Assembly (NCBI GenBank): GCA_963807605.1
Contig: CAWECG010000004.1
Location: 1 to 64,000, forward strand
Direction: 5' to 3'
Source of the DNA: Candidatus Bathyarchaeota archaeon
Lineage (GTDB): Archaea; Thermoproteota; Bathyarchaeia; 40CM-2-53-6; RBG-13-38-9
DNA length: 64,000 bases
Positions 19,757 to 29,423 of this stretch are shown piece by piece. Position 1 is the first letter of the stretch. The number at the start of each line of letters is the position of its first letter. Below the pieces are notes generated by a model. It saw only the letters and a program-made list of their open reading frames with translations, ran no database searches and was not told the DNA's origin. Position numbers and translations under genes: made by a program.

Positions 19757-20263
19757 TCAATAGGCTTCCGGGGGTCTACTTACTCTTCTAACAAGCCTAG
19801 CCATTCTCCTTCCGAACTCGACACACGACTTCTTGCATCTATCATCGAGTTTCCCAATAGCAACCGGTCCATAATGACCATCTTCTGGAGAACCCTGTAT
19901 CACCATACCATGGATCAATAACGCATCCAAAATGGTCAGGATCGTCGTCTCACCGCCCCCCGCAATATTTCCTGAAGATGAAAAAGCCCCACCAACTTTG
20001 CCCTCCAGTTTTCCATGGAGTCTAACGCTCTCGTCAATGAATGCTTTTATCTCCCCAGCCATTGTACCGTAGTATGTCGGAGATCCTATCACCACGACCT
20101 CTACATCCAAAAGCTCCTCAACCTGTGTCTCTTCAACTGGCTTAACGACGACACTAATACCATCCAACTTCATGCCTTCAGCAATTAGTTCGGCCATTCT
20201 TTTCGTGTTGCCGGACTTTGAGAAGTAAATAACGATACCTTTGGGCATTCTTATCCTCTTCAA
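19757..20263 (-). CDS. Flavodoxin/WrbA-like NAD(P)H-dependent oxidoreductase
   Basis: YFSKSGNTKRMAE, GSPTYYGTM, GGGETT, HYGPV. Confidence 0.9.
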   Translation of the reverse strand: MKRIRMPKGIVIYFSKSGNTKRMAELIAEGMKLDGISVVVKPVEETQVEELLDVEVVVIGSPTYYGTMAGEIKAFIDESVRLHGKLEGKVGGAFSSSGNIAGGGETTILTILDALLIHGMVIQGSPEDGHYGPVAIGKLDDRCKKSCVEFGRRMARLVRRVSRPPEAY

Positions 20264-20298
20264 AATATAATCTTAAGCACGCGCGCTGCGTGTGCTTG

Positions 20299-21141
20299 TT
20301 ATGTTGTCTCTTTTGGCTTGATTCCGCTGACTTTTATGCTCAAAATTGAATTTGCGAGTTCTTCTATCTCGTCGCGTTGCAGTCCTGATTTCTTGATGAT
20401 CTCCTTCGCGTTCGGGTCGTTGGATATATCTCCAATGGGAAAAGGTGTCTCGTCGACGGTCTGTATTTTGTGAAACCCTGCTTGTTGGATGGCCTTTAGG
20501 TATTCTTCTTTCTTGATGGCTCCAGCAACACAGCCAACGTATGCCTCGATAGACTCCTTTATGGCGCTGGGAAGTTCTCTCGTCAGGACTATGTCTGAGA
20601 TAATGAATCTGCCTCTTGGCTTCAACACTCTGAATGCTTCTGCAAAGACTCGCCTTTTGTCAGTTGACAGATTGATGACACAATTTGAGATGACCACGTC
20701 GATCGAGTTGTCAGCCGCAGGAAGGTTCTCGATCTCTCCGATTCTGAACTCCACATTCTCATAGTTTTCCTTCTCAGCATTTTGCCGAGCTCCTTCTATC
20801 ATCTCAGGCGTCATATCTACGCCGATGACTTTTCCCCTGTTGCCAACTTTGTTTGCGGCGAGGAAACAATCGAACCCGGCTCCCGATCCAAGATCCAGAA
20901 CCGTCTCTCCTTCTTTCAGCGACGCGATGGCAACAGGGTTTCCACAACCCAATCCCAGATTTGCACCTTCAGGGACTGCCCTAAGCTCATCGTCCGTGTA
21001 GCCTATCTTCTTGCTCAGCGTCTCCGGAAGACTGCAGCAGCTGGCGACGTCACAACAGGATCTCTCCGTTCTAGCTAGTTCTCCATATTTCTGTCGTACA
21101 ACCTTCTTGATCTGATCCTCTTTCATCCTAAACACATCCAA
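20299..21141 (-). CDS. arsM: Arsenite S-adenosylmethionine methyltransferase
   Basis: ANLGLGCGNP, LDLGSGAGFDCF, ISNCVINL, YVGCVAGA; Cys-rich N-terminus. Confidence 0.95.
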   Translation of the reverse strand: MDVFRMKEDQIKKVVRQKYGELARTERSCCDVASCCSLPETLSKKIGYTDDELRAVPEGANLGLGCGNPVAIASLKEGETVLDLGSGAGFDCFLAANKVGNRGKVIGVDMTPEMIEGARQNAEKENYENVEFRIGEIENLPAADNSIDVVISNCVINLSTDKRRVFAEAFRVLKPRGRFIISDIVLTRELPSAIKESIEAYVGCVAGAIKKEEYLKAIQQAGFHKIQTVDETPFPIGDISNDPNAKEIIKKSGLQRDEIEELANSILSIKVSGIKPKETT

Positions 21142-21143
21142 TT

Positions 21144-21425
21144 CTATTCCTGTAATATCTCCTTCATCATAGGCCCAAGCATATCTCGCACCATGGCTGC
21201 CATATCTTCAACTTTAACCAGAGAGATGCAGCACACTTTTCCCTGCTTCTCCCAACTCACGACTCCCAGCTTATCTCCAACGTGGATTCCGGCCTTTTCT
21301 CTGACGTCCTTCGGAAGCACCATCTGCCCTCTATCATCTACGCTAACAACAGATTCCACCTTGCAGCAGCCAACTCTGCCACTTTCTACTATGCAAGTAG
21401 GCCTAACCCTGTGTTTTCCAACCAT
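21144..21425 (-). CDS. hgcC: AbrB-fold protein resembling the HgcAB-associated protein HgcC
   Basis: CCKVESVVSVDDRGQMVLPKDVREKAGI...KVCCISLVK...MLGPMM. Confidence 0.75.
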   Translation of the reverse strand: MVGKHRVRPTCIVESGRVGCCKVESVVSVDDRGQMVLPKDVREKAGIHVGDKLGVVSWEKQGKVCCISLVKVEDMAAMVRDMLGPMMKEILQE

Positions 21426-21466
21426 GATTGTTCTCCACTAAACTCTCCGCATCGGCTAATTAAGTA

Positions 21467-21482
21467 TTCTGATTATTCAGAA
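21467..21482. promoter_or_regulatory. Inverted repeat TTCTGA-TTAT-TCAGAA upstream of hgcC-arsM; candidate operator
   Basis: Dyad ~40 bp upstream of the start codon, in an AT-rich promoter region. Confidence 0.4.
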
Positions 21483-21601
21483 AAATCATAATTTTCTACA
21501 GATTGAGACTGAAGCGCGCGCGTAGTTAAACATTTGAGGCTATATGTCTTGCTGCCCGTGGACAAGAGATACCCAAGATAGAGATTAGTGAGCGTGCGCG
21601 C

Positions 21602-21895
21602 GTGCTAGGGAATACGCGGTTAGAGCTAGAACACTTCGACAAAGACTTTGATAGACTCACAGATCCGAAGAACAAGGTCAAACGAGGATACCTACTATTC
21701 TTCGTGAGAAGACAAGACTTCAAGGGCTCAGGTATGCTGCCGATAATCAATCAGTTGCCGAAAAGATTTCAAGAGAAAGCTGAAAAGAGTCGAGACCGCA
21801 CAAGCAACCTTGCGATCGTCTACGCTGAATCTCAATGCCGAGACTCCGGTCGTCCCATAGTGATACCTGAAGACCAATCATCTTGGATCGGATAG
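21602..21895 (+). pseudogene. Hypothetical gene fragment, possibly the C-terminal part of a larger protein
   Basis: Protein-like ORF that begins within the GCGTGCGCGCGTGC tract. Confidence 0.3.
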
Positions 21896-22416
21896 CGCGT
21901 ACGTTTTCGCTCAGACCATCAACGAAATGCTGATTATCCCTTAGTCCGAATATGTAGATATTTGAAGAACCCTAGTCGAGATGTTCCTAACATTGGAATA
22001 TTGGGTGATCTGAAGCGTCGCCGCGCGCGCTTTCTTGCATCCGTTTTGACTGGGGGCTAGTCTTCTTCTTAAAGACCTGCCAGTCCTCCCCAGCCTTAAG
22101 ATCCCCCGGCCTAGTAAGCGATAATGCCGGCTTACTCGAAATCTCCTTCACGGCAGCATCTGCCAAGTTAGGATCCAGTTTCTTAAGGGCTAGGTAAGAT
22201 TCATTCAGCACGCGCGGCAGGAGCCTCTACGAGCAAGAGGTTAAGAAATACCAAATCCCTGAATACGTGTACGCACTGAGACTCTTCCATCATGTTACCG
22301 TAATCGTAGAAACAACCCTTAGAAACCACCACAGTCATTTTGTTGAATATGTGGATCCCGGGCGTAAAATGGAACTGCGTCAAGATCCTAAATGACCTGA
22401 CAAGAGGTCAGATGGT

Positions 22417-23202
22417 TTGAATAAAATCAGGAAAGTTAAACCTCTCGATGCCTACCCTCCAGAGGATGGCAATTATCTTAGAGGAAACGACTATTCGCCT
22501 GTCGCAATAATCATTCTACTCCACACCGATTACGAAAAGATGCCTGATTTTCTGAAAGAATTGTCCAAAATTGCTATAGAGGCTGGTGCGGCCTTAGCAG
22601 GCTTCCTTCAGACAGAAAACGTAGGCATAGAGAAGATCATCTGCAATGTCATCGCTAACCCTAACATTAGATATGTAGTGTTGTGCGGGGTTGAGTCGGC
22701 AGGCCACCATCCCGGACAGACTTTTGAATCATTTATGAAGAATGGTGTTGATGATAAGAGGCAAATCATAGGGGCGGTGTCTCTGACTCCATTCCTCTAT
22801 AATGTTTCACTTGAAGCCTTAGAGAGGTTCCGCAAACAGATACAATTGGTGAGCCTATTAACTGATGACGACAGAAGAATCAGGATCGATCCTGAAACAG
22901 TCAGGAAAGTGATCGATGCCTGCATACAGGAAAACCCCACACCGATCCTAACCTTCACTTTACACGATCTTGGAGCCTACCCTGAGGCGCCCATATGCCA
23001 AGAGATTACTTGGAGAGTGGAGAGACCTTGGGCCAATTATCCTCAAGAAGAATCCGAAAAGTTGGAAAAGATAAGGGAGATTGCCTCCATTAGACGAAAA
23101 GAGGAAAACGAGTTGGAGAAGCGTCGTCAAAAAGATGTAGAGTTCCTGGGGTTGTTGTTTCCAAAAGGGATGCCCGAAAAGAAGAATGAAAACAAGAAAT
23201 AG
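22417..23202 (+). CDS. mtrA: MtrA-like corrinoid-binding protein without TM anchor
   Basis: AGAALAG.LQTENVGIEKII.NVIANPNIRYVVLCGVESAGHHPGQ, IIGA...PFL.N..EALERFRKQI; charged C-terminus instead of a TM helix. Confidence 0.85.
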   Translation: MNKIRKVKPLDAYPPEDGNYLRGNDYSPVAIIILLHTDYEKMPDFLKELSKIAIEAGAALAGFLQTENVGIEKIICNVIANPNIRYVVLCGVESAGHHPGQTFESFMKNGVDDKRQIIGAVSLTPFLYNVSLEALERFRKQIQLVSLLTDDDRRIRIDPETVRKVIDACIQENPTPILTFTLHDLGAYPEAPICQEITWRVERPWANYPQEESEKLEKIREIASIRRKEENELEKRRQKDVEFLGLLFPKGMPEKKNENKK

Positions 23203-23507
23203 GCCATGGGAGGTCTATCGAAATCTCAAGAGATAGACATCGCGGCATGAAGAACAAAACGATGTTAGCCTGCTCAAAAGTTTCTATCGATTCTTTCTGA
23301 GTTTCTTGATCGAAGCCTGTAATCGCATCTGAGTCTCGCTCAGAAACATCTCTCGTGTTCGAGAGCCCTTACTACTATCACTCAGGTTTACACTCTGACT
23401 TGTTGTGTTCTAAACGCGCGCGCTAAAACTAGTGCGAATTCAAAGTATTGTCGTACAGCAAGAATTATATATTTAAGAACGTTAATCTGGAGCGCGACTG
23501 GTAGCAG

Positions 23508-23906
23508 ATGACCATGGAAATAGTGGAGAACCGGCTAAAGCGGCTTTTGGAGTCCGGCCTTAGAGGTTCATGCAGACCGACCGAACGCATCCTGCAACTG
23601 AAAAGGATATTGCGGACTCTGGACGAGTCGAGATTGAAGCACGTGGCGAACGTCTTTTCGGGGCTTGGCGACAGAACTCGTCTGAAGATCCTTAGACTCA
23701 TAGCTAAGGAGGAACTTTGCTCCTGTGAGGTCATGGCTGCACTGGAGTTGACGCAACCAACCGCCTCCCATCATCTGGGAATTTTGGAGAGAGCCGGGTT
23801 GGTCTCTAGTCGTCGTGAGGGAAAGTGGGTCTTCTATAAATTAGCTGATCCTAGAGTTGAAATCTTACTGTCAACGGGCCTAGAGGTCGCAGAGGAATGT
23901 TACTAA
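23508..23906 (+). CDS. arsR: ArsR/SmtB transcriptional repressor
   Basis: LGDRTRLKIL, ELCSCEV, TQPTASHHL, RREGKWVFY. Confidence 0.92.
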   Translation: MTMEIVENRLKRLLESGLRGSCRPTERILQLKRILRTLDESRLKHVANVFSGLGDRTRLKILRLIAKEELCSCEVMAALELTQPTASHHLGILERAGLVSSRREGKWVFYKLADPRVEILLSTGLEVAEECY

Positions 23907-23951
23907 CGTGAAAGAACGACCAGCTGATGTTTAGTCTCTGAGAGCGAGTGA

Positions 23952-25025
23952 GTGCCGATGGAAAAAGAGACTGGATTAGGATGGATTGAGAAGCTTCTGG
24001 CTTTGTGGGTAATAATCTGTATTGTTATTGGCCTTTCTCTGGGCAAATATCTACCTGAATTCAGTAAACATCTTGAGATCGGTATTCCAATTGGTTTGTT
24101 TCTGATGATTTACCCAGCAATGACAAAAATAGAGCTAGAGGAGCTTAAGGAGGCTATTAGGAGCAAGAGACAGGTTGGAATAATCGCGTTCTTCAACTAT
24201 GCCATTAATCCCTTCTTGCTCTACGCGTTGGGATTCGTTTTCTTTGAAAAAATCCTTCCTTACTTCGGTCTGATTACATCCGAAGCTGCAAGGTACCTTT
24301 GGACAGGATTGATCCTGCTGGGGGTCGCTCCATGCATTGCCATGGTCCTCGTTTGGACTGATCTTGCCAAAGGAAACGGACCGCTTGGAATAGTGCTTAT
24401 GGCTTGGAACTCAATAATCCAAGTTATCACAACCCCACTCTATATCGCATTACTAGTGGGCACATACATAGCCATAGACATATTCTCCATAGGTCAGAGT
24501 GTTTTGCTATACTTGGGCCTCCCACTACTATTTGGGGTCATAACTCGCAGAGAAGTGATAAAACGCAAATCCGAAGAATGGCTGAACAAGGAGTTGATAC
24601 CGTACTATAATGTCATACAGTTGCTTGCGCTTCTTTTTACTATGGTTGTTATGTTTTCCCTGAAAGGTGGAGTAATAATAGATAATCCAAATCTCATTTG
24701 GCAGATGGCTATACCTGTGGTCATTTTCTTCTTCCTGCTGTTCAACCTTGTCTATTTCACAACTAGACGTTTAGGCTACAACTATGAAGATTCCACCACG
24801 ATGGGATTCCACTGTACGGGCAGAAACTTTGAATTGGCCATTGCAATAGCGCTAACTGCATTCGCATCTATGCCAATGGTCGCAGTCTCTACAGTAGTGG
24901 GTCCCCTCATTGAGATTCCGGTAATGCTCACAATAGTGTGGATAGCCCTCAGAAGAAGAAGACAACTTGAAATGAAAATCGAATTACCGCCCACCAAGAA
25001 AGTCGGAAAGGGCGGAATCTGTTAA
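23952..25025 (+). CDS. acr3: Acr3 arsenite efflux transporter
   Basis: MIYPAM, APCIAMVLVW, GRNFELAIA, VGPLIEIPVM. Confidence 0.95.
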   Translation: MPMEKETGLGWIEKLLALWVIICIVIGLSLGKYLPEFSKHLEIGIPIGLFLMIYPAMTKIELEELKEAIRSKRQVGIIAFFNYAINPFLLYALGFVFFEKILPYFGLITSEAARYLWTGLILLGVAPCIAMVLVWTDLAKGNGPLGIVLMAWNSIIQVITTPLYIALLVGTYIAIDIFSIGQSVLLYLGLPLLFGVITRREVIKRKSEEWLNKELIPYYNVIQLLALLFTMVVMFSLKGGVIIDNPNLIWQMAIPVVIFFFLLFNLVYFTTRRLGYNYEDSTTMGFHCTGRNFELAIAIALTAFASMPMVAVSTVVGPLIEIPVMLTIVWIALRRRRQLEMKIELPPTKKVGKGGIC

Positions 25026-25117
25026 TCTATAAGCAAACCGAAAAGAGTTCACAATATGATGAGCAAGCGCGCGCTAACATAACGATTATCAAAGAATGAA
25101 CTCGGAGAAACAGAAAA

Positions 25118-25264
25118 ATGAAAAATAGAAAAATAAAGAGAATCGTTAGAGAAGGTTACGCCAAGCTCGCTAAGCAGCCCAGTTCCTGTTGCACTCCTAC
25201 TAGTACATGTCGCGGAAGCGTTGACTTGGTCGAGGATATCAGTAAGAAGAACGCGCGCGCTTAG
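25118..25264 (+). pseudogene. arsM: 5' fragment of a second arsM, truncated at a (CG)n tract
   Basis: MKNRKIKRIVREGYAKLAKQPSSCCTPTSTC...ISKK aligns by eye with the ArsM N-terminus MKEDQIKKVVRQKYGELARTERSCC...LSKK, then runs into ACGCGCGCGC and a TAG. Confidence 0.8.
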
Positions 25265-25348
25265 GCTCCAGCGCTCACTAAATTCAAATCCAGAATAGTT
25301 GTATTATAAACACCTGCAACTGTAAGCCGCCTTAGGGGGATCCACAAA

Positions 25349-25708
25349 ATGGATAAAACGAAGCACGAACCCGCAGAGAAAAAGCAACCAGAAGCTACGC
25401 GCTTGGTAATATTCTTGCCGGGAATAGAGAGATCGACTGAGAAAACACTTCGAGTCGCCGCTGTGACCGACGAGGGAAAGATCGATACTACCAGAGATGA
25501 CACCGTAGAACTTTCAATAAACAATGAGGGTCGCATGCGCTTCAAGGACTCATCAAAAAATGTGCAACTCAAATTGATTAATGGAGAAGCGAATGCGACG
25601 GTTATATCAGATCAGTCACATGGAGTCTCAATCTTCAAAGCCAGGTGGATAGGTGGGAAGACACCTCTTCAGCCAATACAAGTAACTTCTATCTTTGTTC
25701 CTGGATGA
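25349..25708 (+). CDS. Hypothetical beta-rich protein upstream of arsC
   Basis: 119 aa ORF co-oriented with arsC, 30 bp upstream of it. Confidence 0.55.
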   Translation: MDKTKHEPAEKKQPEATRLVIFLPGIERSTEKTLRVAAVTDEGKIDTTRDDTVELSINNEGRMRFKDSSKNVQLKLINGEANATVISDQSHGVSIFKARWIGGKTPLQPIQVTSIFVPG

Positions 25709-25738
25709 GTATGTTTGGCCCATAGTTGGTGAGCAAGT

Positions 25739-26149
25739 ATGAAGCGACTGTTATTCGTGTGTGTCGAGAACGCTGGGAGGAGTCAAATGGCTGAGGCTTT
25801 CGCCAATCACTATGGAAAGGGAAAGGTAGTTGCGTCTAGCGCTGGTGTGAAATTGGCTGAAAGGGTGAATCCTCTGGTCGTTGATGTGATGAAAGAGAAA
25901 GGAATCGATATATCTGGAAACAAGCCAAAGCTGCTGAGCCCAAAGATGGCGGAAGTGGTTGATCAAATCATATCGATGGGCTGCAGCGTGGAAGAGGTCT
26001 GCCCGGCAATACGCGCGCGCGTCAGGAATGTAGTGGATTGGGATCTAGAAGATCCGAAAGGAAAGCCGATGGAGAAGGTTCGAGAGATAAGAAACGAAGT
26101 AGAGCGAAAAGTGTTGAGGTTACTCGCTGAAATCGAAGAGCCCGACTGA
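25739..26149 (+). CDS. arsC: Thioredoxin-type (LMW-PTP fold) arsenate reductase
   Basis: FVCVENAGRSQMAE, MGCSVEEVCP, WDLEDP. Confidence 0.93.
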   Translation: MKRLLFVCVENAGRSQMAEAFANHYGKGKVVASSAGVKLAERVNPLVVDVMKEKGIDISGNKPKLLSPKMAEVVDQIISMGCSVEEVCPAIRARVRNVVDWDLEDPKGKPMEKVREIRNEVERKVLRLLAEIEEPD

Positions 26150-26192
26150 AGCCGATACTTAGCACGCTGCACAATAGGCACGCGCGCGCGTA

Positions 26193-26549: not shown

Positions 26550-27209
26550 ATGAAGCTTAGTAGAAGAGCGCTGTTACGTTCAATTCCATTCATAGGTGCT
26601 GCCATTGTTACGGGTTCATGGTGGTTTCTGAACGAGAGAAGACAGAATACAGTAAGTCAGATTCTAACAGGGGAAACGACTGTCCAATCCCGAACCATGA
26701 CTGGCTCATCTGAAACTACAACGATTCCAACTGAAACAAGTACGTTCACTGGAAAGCCTTTCGAGTTTCAAGTAACATGGAATGGAGACGGGCCAACCGA
26801 GGTAAATCTGGCAGATTACCGGCTAACAGTCGATGGAGACGTTTCAAATCCTCTACAACTTACCATAGAAGATCTACGTCGTATGCCCGCCGTCAAAAGG
26901 ACTGTGAACATCGCATGTGTCACGGGATGGAATACCGACGTCCCATGGGAAGGCATACTCTTAACATATCTTCTCGACCTAGCAGGAGCGCCCACGAGCA
27001 TCGATCACCTCACGTTTGAAAGCGTCACAGGTTACAAAATAGACGTTAGCGGAAGTCAGCTAGCAAATCCCGATAATATGATTGCCTTGAAGGCCGGTGA
27101 TGCTCCGTTAAGTGAAGCACATGGATACCCAACTAGACTTGTAGTCCCCACATTCCCCGGTGAAGACTGGGTAAAGTACGTGAAAAGAATAACCTGCACA
27201 AAGACGTGA
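26550..27209 (+). CDS. Sulfite-oxidase-family molybdopterin protein with Tat signal
   Basis: MKLSRRALLR signal, YRLTVDGDV.NP, IACVTGW (Mo ligand Cys), HGYPTRLVVP, WVKYV. Confidence 0.9.
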   Translation: MKLSRRALLRSIPFIGAAIVTGSWWFLNERRQNTVSQILTGETTVQSRTMTGSSETTTIPTETSTFTGKPFEFQVTWNGDGPTEVNLADYRLTVDGDVSNPLQLTIEDLRRMPAVKRTVNIACVTGWNTDVPWEGILLTYLLDLAGAPTSIDHLTFESVTGYKIDVSGSQLANPDNMIALKAGDAPLSEAHGYPTRLVVPTFPGEDWVKYVKRITCTKT

Positions 27210-27794: not shown

Positions 27795-29423
27795 CTAATG
27801 TGTGATGGTGGTCTCGACGGTTATGTCTACTAAGTGATACCCGGTTGAGCCGCTTGGAAATGGGCTCTGGATATTGGCGGTCTGGGTTTTCCCCGTCTTG
27901 TCCGTCGCTCGTACAATGATATGGTAGTCGCCTTTTGTCGGGGGGTTCCATTCGGTTGCCCAGAAAACCCACGTGTATCCTGATAAAGGGTCTTTGAGGC
28001 TGGCGGTCTCCCAGGTTGTGCCACCGTCTGTGCTAACCTCAACCTTCATTATTCCGCGACTGCCTGCGAAAGCTATGCCGGCGATCGGCGCCATGCTGCC
28101 CGCCAGCACTTTCGAGGAGCCCAGCTCCACAAACCTCCTTCTAACCGGGCTATCTCCGGGGATGACTATGGTTGATTGAGTATGGTACTCGGCGTTGTTG
28201 CTCCAGCCCCTCCTCTGCCAGAAGCCTTGATGAACCTGGTCGACAATTTCAATGTCCGTTACCCATTTCGCGTTCAACATGCCATATAGGCCGGGAACAA
28301 TAGCCCTCAGAGGCCGGCCGTGTTCCTGTGGAAGAGGCACGCCGTTCATCTCGTACACCAATAGGGTGTCATCAAGAAGCGCTCTCTCCATAGGGATTCC
28401 AACATCGTAGTCGTCGGCGCATCTGAAAACCACGTACACCGCCCCAGACTTAACCTGCGCCTTCTCAAGCAAATCCTTCAAGCGGATTCCTTTCCAGAGG
28501 GCGTTGCTGATCAGATCACCTCCAACTTCGTTGCTTACGCACTCAAGCGTGTTGTACTGATCGACCGCCTGCATCGACTTCAAGTCCGCGTAGCTGAGAG
28601 TCAGCGGGTTGTTGACCAAACCGTGTAGAGAAAGCTTCCAGGCATAAACGTCAATCGCCGGCGGTGAGAGGTTCACGTCCACCCTGTAGAATTGATCGTT
28701 AGCAGTCACTTCTGACGCAACAAATGAAGTTAGCATCGGATCCGCGAAAATACCTTTAGTTTCTGACGGAGGCCTCACAACCTCCGATGTTGGGGTCTGC
28801 TGGCTTGACGGGAAAAAGATATCAAGTCCATAGAAGAGAATAATGGACGCGACTGTGCCTGCGGCAGCCGCGCGGATAAGCAGCCTTCTTCTGTAACCCA
28901 TCCCTGACAAAGCTGTAGGTGTTCCCTCTTGAACAGCGCTCGCTTCGTGGAATGTCATGGCAGATAAGTAGGTTAGGGAGAAGCCGAAGACCAACTGGGC
29001 GGGGAGAAGATAGAGAGCCGCTAGCTGAATTGAGATAGACTGGGTCGAAATCTCGGTTATCCCTAGAAAGGTGACCGATGCGAGCAGCAAAATCAAGTAA
29101 GCGAGCAGCGAGAATCCTAGAGCTTTAGGCACGTATCCCTTTCCGGCAAACCTGGGTCGTAAGCCTTGAAGAATCGCTCCAAGAACGCCGTAGATAGCAA
29201 GATTGACACAGATCGCGCCTATCAACACAGAATACTTGGCAACAGAGCCAAGCGCCTCCACGGCTCGCGACTCTATTTGCACAGGTGTTATGGAGAACAG
29301 GGTTTGTGCAGCAAGTTCAGGAACAAACAATCCGCCCGATAGGATCCTGAGAAGAAAAGAGAGGAAGATCGCAAAAGCCCCTGCCGTAACCCCTATCCAG
29401 AACCCTCGAGCCTTGTCGTCCAT
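27795..29423 (-). CDS. Polytopic membrane sulfite-oxidase-family molybdoenzyme
   Basis: Several N-terminal TM helices, internal YRRRLL, FYRVD, TLECVSNEVGGDLISNA.W.G, HGRPLR.IVPGLYG, Mo-co dimerisation domain. Confidence 0.92.
   Translation of the reverse strand: MDDKARGFWIGVTAGAFAIFLSFLLRILSGGLFVPELAAQTLFSITPVQIESRAVEALGSVAKYSVLIGAICVNLAIYGVLGAILQGLRPRFAGKGYVPKALGFSLLAYLILLLASVTFLGITEISTQSISIQLAALYLLPAQLVFGFSLTYLSAMTFHEASAVQEGTPTALSGMGYRRRLLIRAAAAGTVASIILFYGLDIFFPSSQQTPTSEVVRPPSETKGIFADPMLTSFVASEVTANDQFYRVDVNLSPPAIDVYAWKLSLHGLVNNPLTLSYADLKSMQAVDQYNTLECVSNEVGGDLISNALWKGIRLKDLLEKAQVKSGAVYVVFRCADDYDVGIPMERALLDDTLLVYEMNGVPLPQEHGRPLRAIVPGLYGMLNAKWVTDIEIVDQVHQGFWQRRGWSNNAEYHTQSTIVIPGDSPVRRRFVELGSSKVLAGSMAPIAGIAFAGSRGIMKVEVSTDGGTTWETASLKDPLSGYTWVFWATEWNPPTKGDYHIIVRATDKTGKTQTANIQSPFPSGSTGYHLVDITVETTITH

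Follow-up and report, generated by a model that had tools for sequence, protein, structure and literature searches.

A soluble MtrA-family protein encoded in the arsenic gene cluster of a Bathyarchaeia-like archaeon

Gene content and local history of the cluster

A soluble relative of the B12-binding subunit of a methanogen enzyme was found in the arsenic cluster of a non-methanogenic archaeon. The window, the whole stretch of 64,000 nucleotides that was analysed, came from a Bathyarchaeia-like, 94%-complete genome in which no McrA was found. The arsM, hgcC-like, mtrA-like, arsR, acr3 and arsC genes and the arsM fragment named in the original prediction were all present in their places (Table 1), together with two cluster genes absent from its list, the flavodoxin/WrbA-like gene and the conserved ORF ahead of arsC.

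Table 1. Features of the arsenic cluster in the window
Feature	Position	Strand	Details
Flavodoxin/WrbA-like protein	19757..20263	-	168 aa; Pfam Flavodoxin_5 7.7e-12, FMN_red 2.9e-11
ArsM, SAM-dependent arsenite methyltransferase	20299..21141	-	280 aa; NF008823 367 bits (cut-off 263); Methyltransf_31 1.3e-45
HgcC-family AbrB/SpoVT-type small protein	21144..21425	-	93 aa; NF040962 119.8 bits (cut-off 70); MazE_antitoxin/AbrB domain
Gap of ~1 kb separating divergent units	21426..22416	.	no recognisable gene
Soluble MtrA-like protein	22417..23202	+	261 aa, TTG start; PF04208 139 bits (above cut-off); NF002126 172 bits (cut-off 161)
Spacer with arsR-acr3 promoter box and CG tract	23203..23507	+	alignment with L003
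ArsR/SmtB metalloregulator	23508..23906	+	132 aa; HTH_5 3.9e-17; NF033788 97.5 bits (cut-off 55)
Acr3 arsenite efflux permease	23952..25025	+	357 aa; TIGR00832 270 bits (slightly under cut-off 282.8); SBF 4.4e-42
arsM N-terminal remnant, 48-codon ORF	25118..25264	+	BLASTP match to ArsM
Conserved ORF	25349..25708	+	119 aa; 76% identical in L003, 56% in L006
ArsC, low-molecular-weight phosphatase-type arsenate reductase	25739..26149	+	136 aa; LMWPc 7.6e-24

The flavodoxin/WrbA-like gene was the final gene of an hgcC-arsM-flavodoxin unit. All NCBIfam matches of its product scored under their cut-offs, and the protein is possibly a low-potential electron donor. In locus L075, a flavodoxin was located directly upstream of the MtrA-like gene, and in other Bathyarchaeia the flavodoxin adjoining ArsM was not conserved. 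The ArsM translation contained the cysteine motifs SCC, GCGNP, NCV, and GCVAG, and the HgcC-family protein, whose gene ended 3 nt ahead of the ArsM start, contained two vicinal Cys pairs. Across Bathyarchaeia, 27 of 29 loci had the HgcC family immediately upstream of a co-oriented ArsM gene; the partner of the HgcC-like gene is ArsM and not the MtrA-like gene. Small ORFs in the gap between the divergent units had no Pfam match. ArsR carried the motif ELCSCE, and Acr3, which was 90% identical to its L003 homologue, carried PCIAMV. ArsC had the CX5R-S loop and distal Cys pair of the LMWP type, and the NCBIfam ArsC models all scored under their cut-offs. The arsM remnant matched ArsM residues 6-45 at 43% identity (pairwise BLASTP, E = 3e-8) and was missed by standard tblastn; its stop codon was located inside or just past a CG tract. 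The conserved ORF had neither a Pfam nor an NCBIfam match, and its identification as arsM was ruled out by the lack of similarity to ArsM.

The CG tracts seen in the original prediction were real and dense, with seven (CG)4+ tracts in 21514-26181 versus 1.2 per 10 kb genome-wide; those in the gap began at 21514 and 22022. The suggestion that they marked an independent arrival of the MtrA-like gene had to be abandoned, since the block containing mtrA-like, the spacer, arsR, and acr3 (22432-25027) was collinear with the relative L003 at 78% DNA identity, and the spacer CG tract (23413-23424) was missing from the homologous L003 site. Upstream of 22432, no DNA similarity to L003 was found. The spacer contained an archaeal-type promoter box for arsR-acr3, TATATATTTAAGAAC, approximately 40 nt ahead of the arsR start, and both the A/T box and the arsR start region were kept in the L003 alignment. 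No region upstream of the MtrA-like gene in the window was conserved with L003. From these alignments, the MtrA-like gene is probably transcribed apart from arsR-acr3.

Fold, cofactor site and clade of the MtrA-like protein

Three parts made up the MtrA-like protein: residues ~1-175 formed an MtrA Rossmann-type domain, ~176-205 an extension specific to the clade, and ~210-261 a long charged helix and its tail. Its best PDB sequence matches were 5LAA (E = 2e-37) and 5L8X, and a Foldseek search with the AF2 model (pLDDT 84.4) returned the same two structures with E ~4e-19 and TM scores of 0.91-0.93. The modelled structure has the MtrA fold. The GH cobalt-ligand motif reported in the original prediction held up on alignment: His97 and Glu67 aligned with His84 and Glu54 of the cobalamin-bound structure 5LAA, the cobalt-ligation pair of MtrA (PMC4915002). 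In the solved structure of MtrA, this His-Glu pair supports the cobalt from its lower side; the MtrA-like protein retained the pair, and across the clade H97 was present in all 77 members and E67 in 73 of them. The meander motif of MtrA, GAIPF/YxEN, was changed to (A/S)xTP(Y/F)L(Y/F)N in the clade. No Cys pair or triad fit for As(III) binding was conserved among the clade members, only C169 being nearly invariant. The predicted absence of a membrane anchor was borne out, as the top 19-residue hydropathy in residues 170-261 was 0.59, compared with 2.2-2.7 in the canonical MtrAs L083-L085. The dN/dS of the gene versus L003 was 0.10, and it is under purifying selection.

In the MtrA phylogeny, the gene fell into a distinct single clade (SH-aLRT 98), with ars-linked loci distributed over all of its main subclades in both archaea and bacteria. 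Members scored above 307 bits with the clade HMM, whereas canonical MtrA and other PF04208 paralogues of the same methanogen genomes scored 92-133 bits. By these sequence comparisons, the clade is tight and apart from canonical MtrA and the other MtrA paralogues compared; Q65, T124, and Y/F128 were its signature residues. Archaeal and bacterial members shared 45-50% identity, and such conservation across domains of life suggests a catalytic role. No paper tying this clade to arsenic was found in the literature.

The protein shared its Pfam family, fold, and His-Glu cobalt-ligation network with MtrA of the Na+-pumping methyl-H4MPT:coenzyme M methyltransferase MtrA-H (PDB 5L8X, 8Q3V, 9QTQ), to which it was 36-40% identical over ~170 residues. 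Unlike MtrA, it lacked a C-terminal membrane helix, belonged to a separate clade with the extra conserved segment and the long charged helix, and was encoded next to ars rather than mtr genes. The cytoplasmic MtrA homologues of methanogens (such as that of Methanothermus fervidus, PDB 5LAA) are likewise soluble with a single cobalamin-binding domain; it is for these homologues that base-off/His-on cobalamin binding is known (Wagner, Ermler and Shima 2016, PMC4915002). They contain 170-180 aa and share 60-97% identity with the MtrA of the same organism (PMC4915002), whereas the protein of 261 aa described here was ~40% identical and grouped apart from the short soluble methanogen paralogues. 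MtrA homologues, most of them retaining His84, also occur in bacteria and in archaea that are not methanogens; that study gives neither a function nor an ars link (PMC4915002).

Linkage to ars genes, domain fusions and mtr genes

For the analysis of gene neighbourhoods, 76 loci were picked by similarity alone and annotated by mechanical ORF calls, and a locus was counted as linked when an ArsR, Acr3, ArsP-like, ArsM, or ArsC gene lay within 5 kb. Close homologs, whose separation from ars genes the original prediction had set as the finding against it, were ars-linked in 46 of the 76 loci. Among the loci with both flanks complete, 21 of 29 were linked versus about 3% expected (3.4% of the bases in the window's own genome were within 5 kb of such an ars-type match), although the loci are phylogenetically related and these counts overstate their independence. 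The linked loci carried at least ten phylum-level labels, and their host groups are mostly known from anoxic habitats, a distribution suggestive of a B12-dependent step, so far undescribed, in O2-free arsenic handling. Acr3 (31 loci), an ArsP-like permease (29), and ArsM (15) were recurrent neighbours; Thioredoxin_3 (20 loci), DsbD, AhpC/TlpA-like, OsmC, and GcvH were also found. Neither a methyltransferase nor a RACo/RamA-type activase was a regular neighbour. No ars gene was nearby in 30 of the 76 loci, 8 of which had full flanks; outside those 8, the unlinked Methanosarcina locus L061 had Cdc6, an integrase fragment, and a P-type ATPase around it. Two Planctomycetota genes (L053 and L035) encoded fusions of the MtrA-like protein to ArsC. 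An N-terminal 2x[4Fe-4S] ferredoxin was fused in L026, L027, L032, L037, L046, L069, and L078, and L082 carried a C-terminal PF04060 Fe-S domain.

As the original prediction stated, the window contained no other mtr genes. Genome-wide, the only PF04208 match was the MtrA-like gene itself, no mtrB-G genes were found, and a single stand-alone MtrH was located at C4:540000, 517 kb away among unrelated neighbours. The clade was patchy, occurring in 24 of 301 Bathyarchaeia genomes, and MtrH was present in 172 of the 301, including 17 of the 24 clade carriers. MtrH was absent from five bacterial genomes with ars-linked clade members.

Proposed function and alternative explanations

In the explanation that we favour, the gene encodes a soluble cobamide-binding MtrA-family protein whose distinct clade is an accessory part of ars clusters in microbes of mostly anoxic habitats, and which is neither part of a methanogen-type Mtr complex nor a core C1 enzyme; we give this explanation as a whole a probability of roughly 0.55. 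From the conserved residues, the fold, the fusions, and the gene neighbourhood, we infer corrinoid binding, methyl carriage, and arsenic as the substrate. Of the earlier reading, the ars-associated clade stood, backed by the linkage counts and the two ArsC fusions, and the caveat of separate arrival fell with the L003 collinearity.

A doubtful alternative is that the protein is no methyl carrier but a corrinoid-dependent enzyme that either reduces pentavalent organoarsenicals or breaks the C-As bond without O2; its cobalt would be fed by Fe-S clusters, as happens in reductive dehalogenases and QueG. The Fe-S fusions, which occurred in several lineages, the ArsC fusions, and the lack of a methyltransferase partner in the neighbourhoods would fit such an enzyme, but Fe-S modules are equally expected for the reductive reactivation of a methyl carrier (CFeSP, HgcB). 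Moreover, the strictly kept His-on ligation network is typical of methyl-transfer corrinoid proteins, whereas no protein His ligand to cobalamin is known in dehalogenases and QueG. In favour of this enzyme, the known C-As lyase ArsI needs O2, and anoxic paddy soil yielded no arsI transcripts (10.64898/2026.08.27.747368). Slightly more doubtful is a role in a general thiol/redox-stress regulon under ArsR-family control, or in cobamide storage or protection, with no direct action on arsenic. The many thiol-redox neighbours and the missing As-binding Cys motif agree with it, and not every ArsR-family regulator or PF03773 permease is specific to arsenic; against it, arsenic-specific neighbours (Acr3, ArsM, ArsC) were frequent, two members were fused to ArsC itself, and the archaeal-bacterial identity suggests catalysis.

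It is unlikely that the protein is a remnant C1 methyltransferase, a soluble MtrA that partners the stand-alone MtrH in methyl transfer linking H4MPT with either a thiol or the Wood-Ljungdahl pathway, its ars position being incidental. Such a role is the literature's view of MtrA/MtrH in non-methanogens (PMC9635834, PMC11291895, PMC9723677), and MtrH was present here and in most clade-carrying Bathyarchaeia. However, MtrH was distant from the MtrA-like gene, occurred in seven times as many Bathyarchaeia genomes as the clade, and was missing from the five bacterial carriers, and the ars linkage and ArsC fusions would be left unexplained. The HgcC-like neighbour suggests that the protein might act on mercury or some other metal(loid) as HgcA does, but this is highly improbable: the HgcA cap-helix motif was found nowhere in the 94%-complete genome, none of the other 75 loci had an HgcC-like gene beside the clade, the Bathyarchaeia HgcC family pairs with ArsM, and the MtrA-like protein had no similarity to HgcA. 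The parallel to HgcA drawn in the original prediction is an analogy, and the protein is not HgcA-like. Both systems would use a corrinoid protein for a toxic element together with a 2x[4Fe-4S] ferredoxin, fused in relatives of the MtrA-like protein, and HgcAB has been linked to ArsR-type control and the arsenic response; unlike the MtrA-like protein, HgcA has an unrelated, CdhD-like fold with a Cys cap helix and a membrane domain. Methyl transfer to As(III) would need a methyl cation, whereas a carbanion or radical is proposed for Hg.

For the favoured accessory role in arsenic handling, the protein would bind cobamide base-off/His-on, and, as for MtrA, its cobalt would pass from Co(I) to methyl-Co(III) and back, with a low-potential donor for re-reduction. 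Candidate donors are the fused ferredoxin or CFeSP-type Fe-S domains in relatives and a flavodoxin such as the one beside ArsM here. The methyl group would then be exchanged with an arsenical. We lean slightly towards a methyl cation passing from methyl-Co(III) to As(III), a methylation that would not depend on SAM, would be fed by ArsC, and would precede export; nearly as likely, Co(I) would take the methyl group from a methylarsenical in an oxygen-independent demethylation. In this archaeon, methyl-H4MPT could be the source from which the stand-alone MtrH charges the cobalt, but this cannot be a general rule. ArsM and ArsI, the known enzymes adding or removing arsenic methyl groups, are also encoded in ars clusters, but neither uses cobamide. 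Anaerobic demethylation, for which no enzyme is known, has been attributed to methylotrophic methanogens (PMC10579292, 10.64898/2026.08.27.747368).

Methylcobalamin methylates arsenite non-enzymatically and, reportedly, in the work of McBride and Wolfe in 1971, supplied the methyl groups for the dimethylarsine that Methanobacterium extracts formed.

The MtrA-like protein and its gene cluster

A mechanical ORF listing and profile searches of the window showed that the ars region consisted of two divergent units, whose genes are listed in the table. Every gene named in the original prediction was recovered, and its list had omitted only the flavodoxin and the conserved ORF of no assigned function. 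This ORF, considered as the arsM fragment, had no similarity to ArsM, and the true fragment was the 48-codon remnant. The ArsR, Acr3 and ArsC proteins carried their usual motifs.

Genes and gene remnants of the ars region in the window
Feature	Position	Strand	Evidence
Flavodoxin/WrbA-like protein	19757-20263	-	Profile searches
ArsM	20299-21141	-	NF008823, 367 bits
HgcC-family AbrB-type protein	21144-21425	-	NF040962, 119.8 bits (cut-off 70)
MtrA-like gene, TTG start	22417-23202	+	PF04208, 139 bits (cut-off 25); NF002126 subfamily, 172.3 bits (cut-off 161)
ArsR	23508-23906	+	ELCSCE motif
Acr3	23952-25025	+	PCIAMV motif
arsM N-terminus remnant, 48 codons	25118-25264	+	Similarity to ArsM
Conserved ORF, no assigned function	25349-25708	+	ORF listing
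ArsC, LMWP-type	25739-26149	+	CX5R-S loop

The MtrA-like protein of 261 residues belonged to the MtrA family by both profiles, and its AF2 model (pLDDT 84.4) adopted the Rossmann-type MtrA fold. Foldseek matched the model to the solved MtrA structures 5L8X (chain A, E = 3.6e-19, TM 0.91) and 5LAA (TM 0.93), with target-normalised TM scores and an rmsd of about 2.3 Å. In MtrA, the lower cobalt ligand is His84 and its hydrogen-bond partner is Glu54 (PMC4915002). The HMMER alignment placed His97 and Glu67 of the window protein at these positions, in agreement with the claim that the GH cobalt-ligand motif was kept, and among the members of the clade the histidine was present in 77 of 77 and the glutamate in 73 of 77. 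The MtrA domain of about 175 residues was followed by a stretch that is conserved across clade members (about 176-205) and by a long charged helix. The predicted lack of a membrane anchor was also confirmed, as residues 170-261 contained no hydrophobic stretch (maximum hydropathy 0.59), whereas the canonical MtrAs of methanogen genomes reached 2.2-2.7 within their last 25 residues. A dN/dS of 0.10 relative to the gene of the closest relative showed that the gene was under purifying selection. No conserved As(III)-binding cysteine pair or triad was found in the clade, and C169 was its only nearly invariant cysteine.

Known corrinoid proteins were compared with the window protein. As a candidate for the canonical MtrA of the MtrA-H complex, it scored 135.6 bits against the TIGR01111 equivalog cut-off of 249; canonical MtrA has a C-terminal transmembrane helix and mtrB-H neighbours, whereas the window protein had no hydrophobic C-terminus and only a distant MtrH. 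The cytoplasmic MtrA homologues of methanogens are shorter, with 170-180 residues and 60-97% identity to MtrA, while the window protein was 36-40% identical to the solved MtrAs, and its clade was separate from the short methanogen paralogues at L086, L088, L089 and L093. An HgcA-type protein would have a CdhD-like corrinoid domain, the cap-helix motif and a membrane domain; this motif was not found in the genome, and in profile searches the window protein matched MtrA models only. The window gene belongs to the MtrA family but is neither the canonical MtrA nor a short cytoplasmic methanogen homologue, and its clade is ars-linked and has no described function.

The window forms the initial 64 kb of contig C4 in a source genome of 2.65 Mb (94% complete), and the closest homologues of the protein were all named Bathyarchaeia or Bathyarchaeota. 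McrA was not found in this genome, and the window gene was its single PF04208 gene. The original prediction that the window held no other mtr genes could be extended to the whole genome, where the sole other mtr gene was one MtrH, 517 kb away between genes for a glycosyltransferase and a DUF6282 protein. The HgcA cap-helix motif N(V/I)WCA(A/G)GK was absent from the six-frame translations of the genome, and the PF03599 matches were two CdhD/CdhE-type pairs elsewhere on the same contig. Taken together, the missing McrA, the lone PF04208 gene, the distant MtrH and the absent HgcA motif indicated a non-methanogen that lacks an Mtr complex and in which hgcA was not detectable.

Linkage of the clade to ars genes

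A clade HMM was built from an alignment of 23 relatives. Members of the clade scored above 307 bits; the scores were 92-133 bits for canonical MtrAs and for other PF04208 paralogues that the same methanogen genomes encode. A maximum-likelihood tree of 84 sequences, from a quick search without bootstrap, recovered the clade as one group (SH-aLRT 98) on a long branch to the paralogues. Residues Gln65, Thr124 and Tyr/Phe128 were signatures of the clade, with Lys, Ile and Glu/Gln/Asn, respectively, in the other proteins. The conservation of the clade was unusually high: archaeal and bacterial members shared 45-50% identity, and the clade collapsed into few 50%-identity clusters of a library of 1.8 billion proteins.

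To analyze the neighbourhoods, the best 80 tblastn matches were taken, with one genome per species and selection by similarity alone. ORFs were called and clustered at these loci, and the clusters were named by Pfam and by BLAST to the window proteins. Linkage was defined as ArsR, Acr3, a PF03773 ArsP-like permease, ArsM or ArsC within 5 kb. A usable clade member was present at 76 loci, of which 46 were linked, the window's own included, and linkage rose to 21 of 29 where at least 5 kb was present on both sides, although these counts are not independent trials since the loci are mutually related. The lack of association between close homologues and ars genes, which had been named as the result that would speak against the prediction, was therefore not what we observed. 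The linked ars genes were mostly on the same strand as the clade member and often adjoined it; an ars gene other than ArsR was found at 41 of the 76 loci, and at least two ars gene types at 34. Of the 30 unlinked loci, 22 had one incomplete flank. In a control with the same queries and threshold, 3.4% of the bases in the window's own genome were within 5 kb of a match. At least ten phylum-level labels from archaea and bacteria occurred among the linked loci, comprising Bathyarchaeota, Nitrososphaerota, Methanobacteriota and an Asgard archaeon on the archaeal side and Acidobacteriota (8 of 8), Planctomycetota, Chloroflexota, Aerophobota, Bacillota and a deltaproteobacterial MAG on the bacterial side, and every main subclade of the tree contained linked loci. 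Chance linkage is unlikely because the linked loci are spread over domains and phyla. A clade member of Methanosarcina sp. UBA5 (locus L061) was not ars-linked and was flanked by a Cdc6/Orc gene, an integrase fragment and a P-type ATPase; a closely related Methanosarcinales copy (L079) was located about 5 kb from arsR-acr3.

The comparison with the closest relative, locus L003, bore on the origin of the gene. Positions 22432-25027 of the window aligned unbroken to L003 10016-12602 with 78% identity, and the collinear stretch contained the MtrA-like gene, a spacer of 305 nt, arsR and acr3. An A/T-rich promoter box before arsR was common to both spacers. The suggestion that the MtrA-like gene was an independent arrival was rejected by this collinearity. 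Upstream of 22432, no similarity to L003 was found, and a CBM96-like gene preceded the L003 homologue. The CG tracts said to flank the gene were indeed present and dense, with seven tracts of (CG)4 or longer in 21514-26181 (4.7 kb) against 1.2 per 10 kb genome-wide, about 12-fold denser, and 21 of the 57 tracts of the contig were located in its first 42 kb. However, they are not a sign that the gene had a separate origin, as the tract at 23413-23424 in the mtrA-arsR spacer had no counterpart in the homologous L003 spacer. The CG tracts are marks of local rearrangement, for example at the arsM stump, which was ended by the tract at 25252-25264. The cross-lineage linkage, the L003 synteny and fusions to ArsC marked the MtrA-like gene as a probable component of the ars cluster.

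Domain fusions and the proposed arsenic chemistry

At two Planctomycetota loci, L053 and L035, an LMWP ArsC domain was fused in frame to the MtrA-like domain, which tied this domain to arsenic. An N-terminal 2x[4Fe-4S] ferredoxin was fused to the MtrA-like domain at seven loci and in several database proteins, and a Dehalococcoidia locus (L082) carried a C-terminal PF04060 Fe-S domain, a type known from the acetyl-CoA pathway corrinoid/iron-sulfur protein. These Fe-S modules fit a cofactor that needs to be kept reduced. In the bacterial database proteins P0123, P0126, P0130, P0131, P0135, P0143, P0148 and P0153 (460-526 residues), a weak TusA-like N-terminus preceded the MtrA-like domain, which a long linker joined to a conserved, Cys-rich C-terminal module with the motifs ACDxDICH and PCQKTxGxCxIGxGC; this module had no Pfam match and could bind a metal or an Fe-S cluster. 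Additionally, proteins P0154-P0157 (about 461 residues) combined an MtrA-family domain with a thymidylate-synthase-like domain (PF00303); they had lower clade-profile scores and probably represent another subfamily.

The methylation of arsenic and its reversal in anoxic soils and sediments govern how toxic the element is, and they also govern arsenic in rice and straighthead disease. To our knowledge, these reactions have only two known enzymes, the SAM-dependent ArsM and the oxygen-requiring ArsI. In the chemistry proposed here, the MtrA-like protein would bind a cobamide, its cobalt would cycle between Co(I) and methyl-Co(III) with reactivation by a ferredoxin or flavodoxin, and an arsenical would accept or donate the methyl group. 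Like the coenzyme M thiolate that naturally accepts the methyl group of methyl-Co(III) MtrA, As(III) is a soft nucleophile, and methylcobalamin is known to methylate arsenite chemically; for these reasons, we lean slightly toward SAM-independent arsenic methylation over the reverse reaction. As ArsI depends on oxygen, it leaves a gap that the reverse reaction would fill. We tentatively propose, with a probability of about 40%, that the clade provides the catalytic cobamide protein for a so far undescribed, O2- and SAM-free arsenic methyl transfer, either the missing anaerobic methylarsenical demethylation enzyme or a methylcobamide:arsenite methyltransferase, and forms a new class of ars genes spread by transfer among anaerobic archaea and bacteria. 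Of the corrinoid-dependent metalloid methylation or demethylation originally predicted, the ars-linked family member with its fold, ligand residues and fusions was shown, whereas the arsenic methyl chemistry is what we infer. The mechanism is weakened by the fact that no methyltransferase or activase is a regular neighbour, that the clade lacks a conserved As-binding cysteine motif and that some of its members are unlinked.

Anaerobic demethylation of methylarsenicals has been attributed to methylotrophic methanogens, with a mechanism called unresolved (PMC10579292; 10.64898/2026.08.27.747368). The MtrA structure paper noted homologues in bacteria and non-methanogenic archaea and assigned no function to them (PMC4915002), and in papers about Asgard archaea or remnants of methanogenesis such genes were treated as C1 methyltransferases of unclear role, arsenic being unmentioned (PMC9635834, PMC11291895, PMC9723677). 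Two Atabeyarchaeia copies described in one of these papers were near arsR-acr3 in our locus analysis (L069). No paper linking the MtrA family or a corrinoid with ars genes or arsenic was found in a literature search of incomplete coverage, which does not prove absence. The nearest precedent was the ArsR-type, arsenic-responsive control of HgcA, an unrelated corrinoid protein, so that the clade would add a second corrinoid-protein link to ArsR-controlled arsenic responses besides hgcAB. A conserved, predicted cobamide protein in the ars operons of many anaerobic phyla is a concrete, clonable candidate for anaerobic arsenic chemistry and makes oxygen-independent arsenic methyl chemistry directly testable. 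It would also change the reading of "MtrA" matches in non-methanogens, which genome annotations call tetrahydromethanopterin S-methyltransferase subunit A and which are now taken as remnants of methanogenesis or C1 metabolism.

Candidate partners and neighbouring genes

Of 301 sampled Bathyarchaeia genomes, 24 contained the clade and 172 contained MtrH, with both in 17 of the 24, and MtrH was not found in five bacterial genomes with ars-linked clade members. MtrH was thereby ruled out as an obligate partner; it may load the cobalt of the MtrA-like protein in the window archaeon, and the clade does not depend on it. The patchy distribution of the clade resembles that of an accessory resistance gene more than that of core C1 metabolism. 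No fixed methyltransferase or activase partner was found among the neighbour clusters of the clade. Further recurrent neighbours were Thioredoxin_3, DsbD, AhpC/TlpA-like, DGC-domain, DUF169, OsmC and GcvH-like proteins, and the initially unexplained clusters were CBM96-like, aldehyde:ferredoxin oxidoreductase, radical SAM/SPASM, TPR and PfkB proteins or had no Pfam match. Genes for GcvH-like (lipoyl-carrier type) and OsmC-like proteins recurred in the archaeal ars-type clusters of L003, L007, L013, L069 and L078, beside Thioredoxin_3, AhpC/TlpA-like and DsbD genes, which suggests that a redox relay based on thiols or lipoyl groups operates in these clusters.

The NF040962 HgcC family, described as HgcAB-associated, occurred in 45 of the 301 Bathyarchaeia genomes. 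At 27 of 29 Bathyarchaeia loci (L105-L133), the HgcC-family gene immediately preceded ArsM on the same strand, and the HgcA motif was beside it at L130 only. The window copy, a 93-residue protein above the equivalog cut-off, likewise had ArsM and not hgcAB as its neighbour, and two vicinal cysteine pairs flanked its AbrB domain. Proteins of this family may bind metal(loid)s and serve the arsenic and mercury methyltransferases alike as a regulator or chaperone. HgcC-like genes were not found beside the clade at other loci at E 1e-5.

The upstream regions of the mtrA-like, arsR and hgcC genes had no operator-like repeat in common, and only the CG tracts recurred. A scan for sigma-70 promoters and terminators, which is uninformative for an archaeon, gave counts at the shuffle level. 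Another short ArsM-like fragment was detected by tblastn on contig C3 of the source genome (584182-584288), with 57-77% identity over short pieces. Just past ArsC, two molybdopterin-binding oxidoreductase genes were located at 26550-27209 (+) and 27795-29423 (-); both were of the sulfite-oxidase type (Oxidored_molyb) and clustered as paralogues, and the longer one had a Mo-co dimerisation domain.
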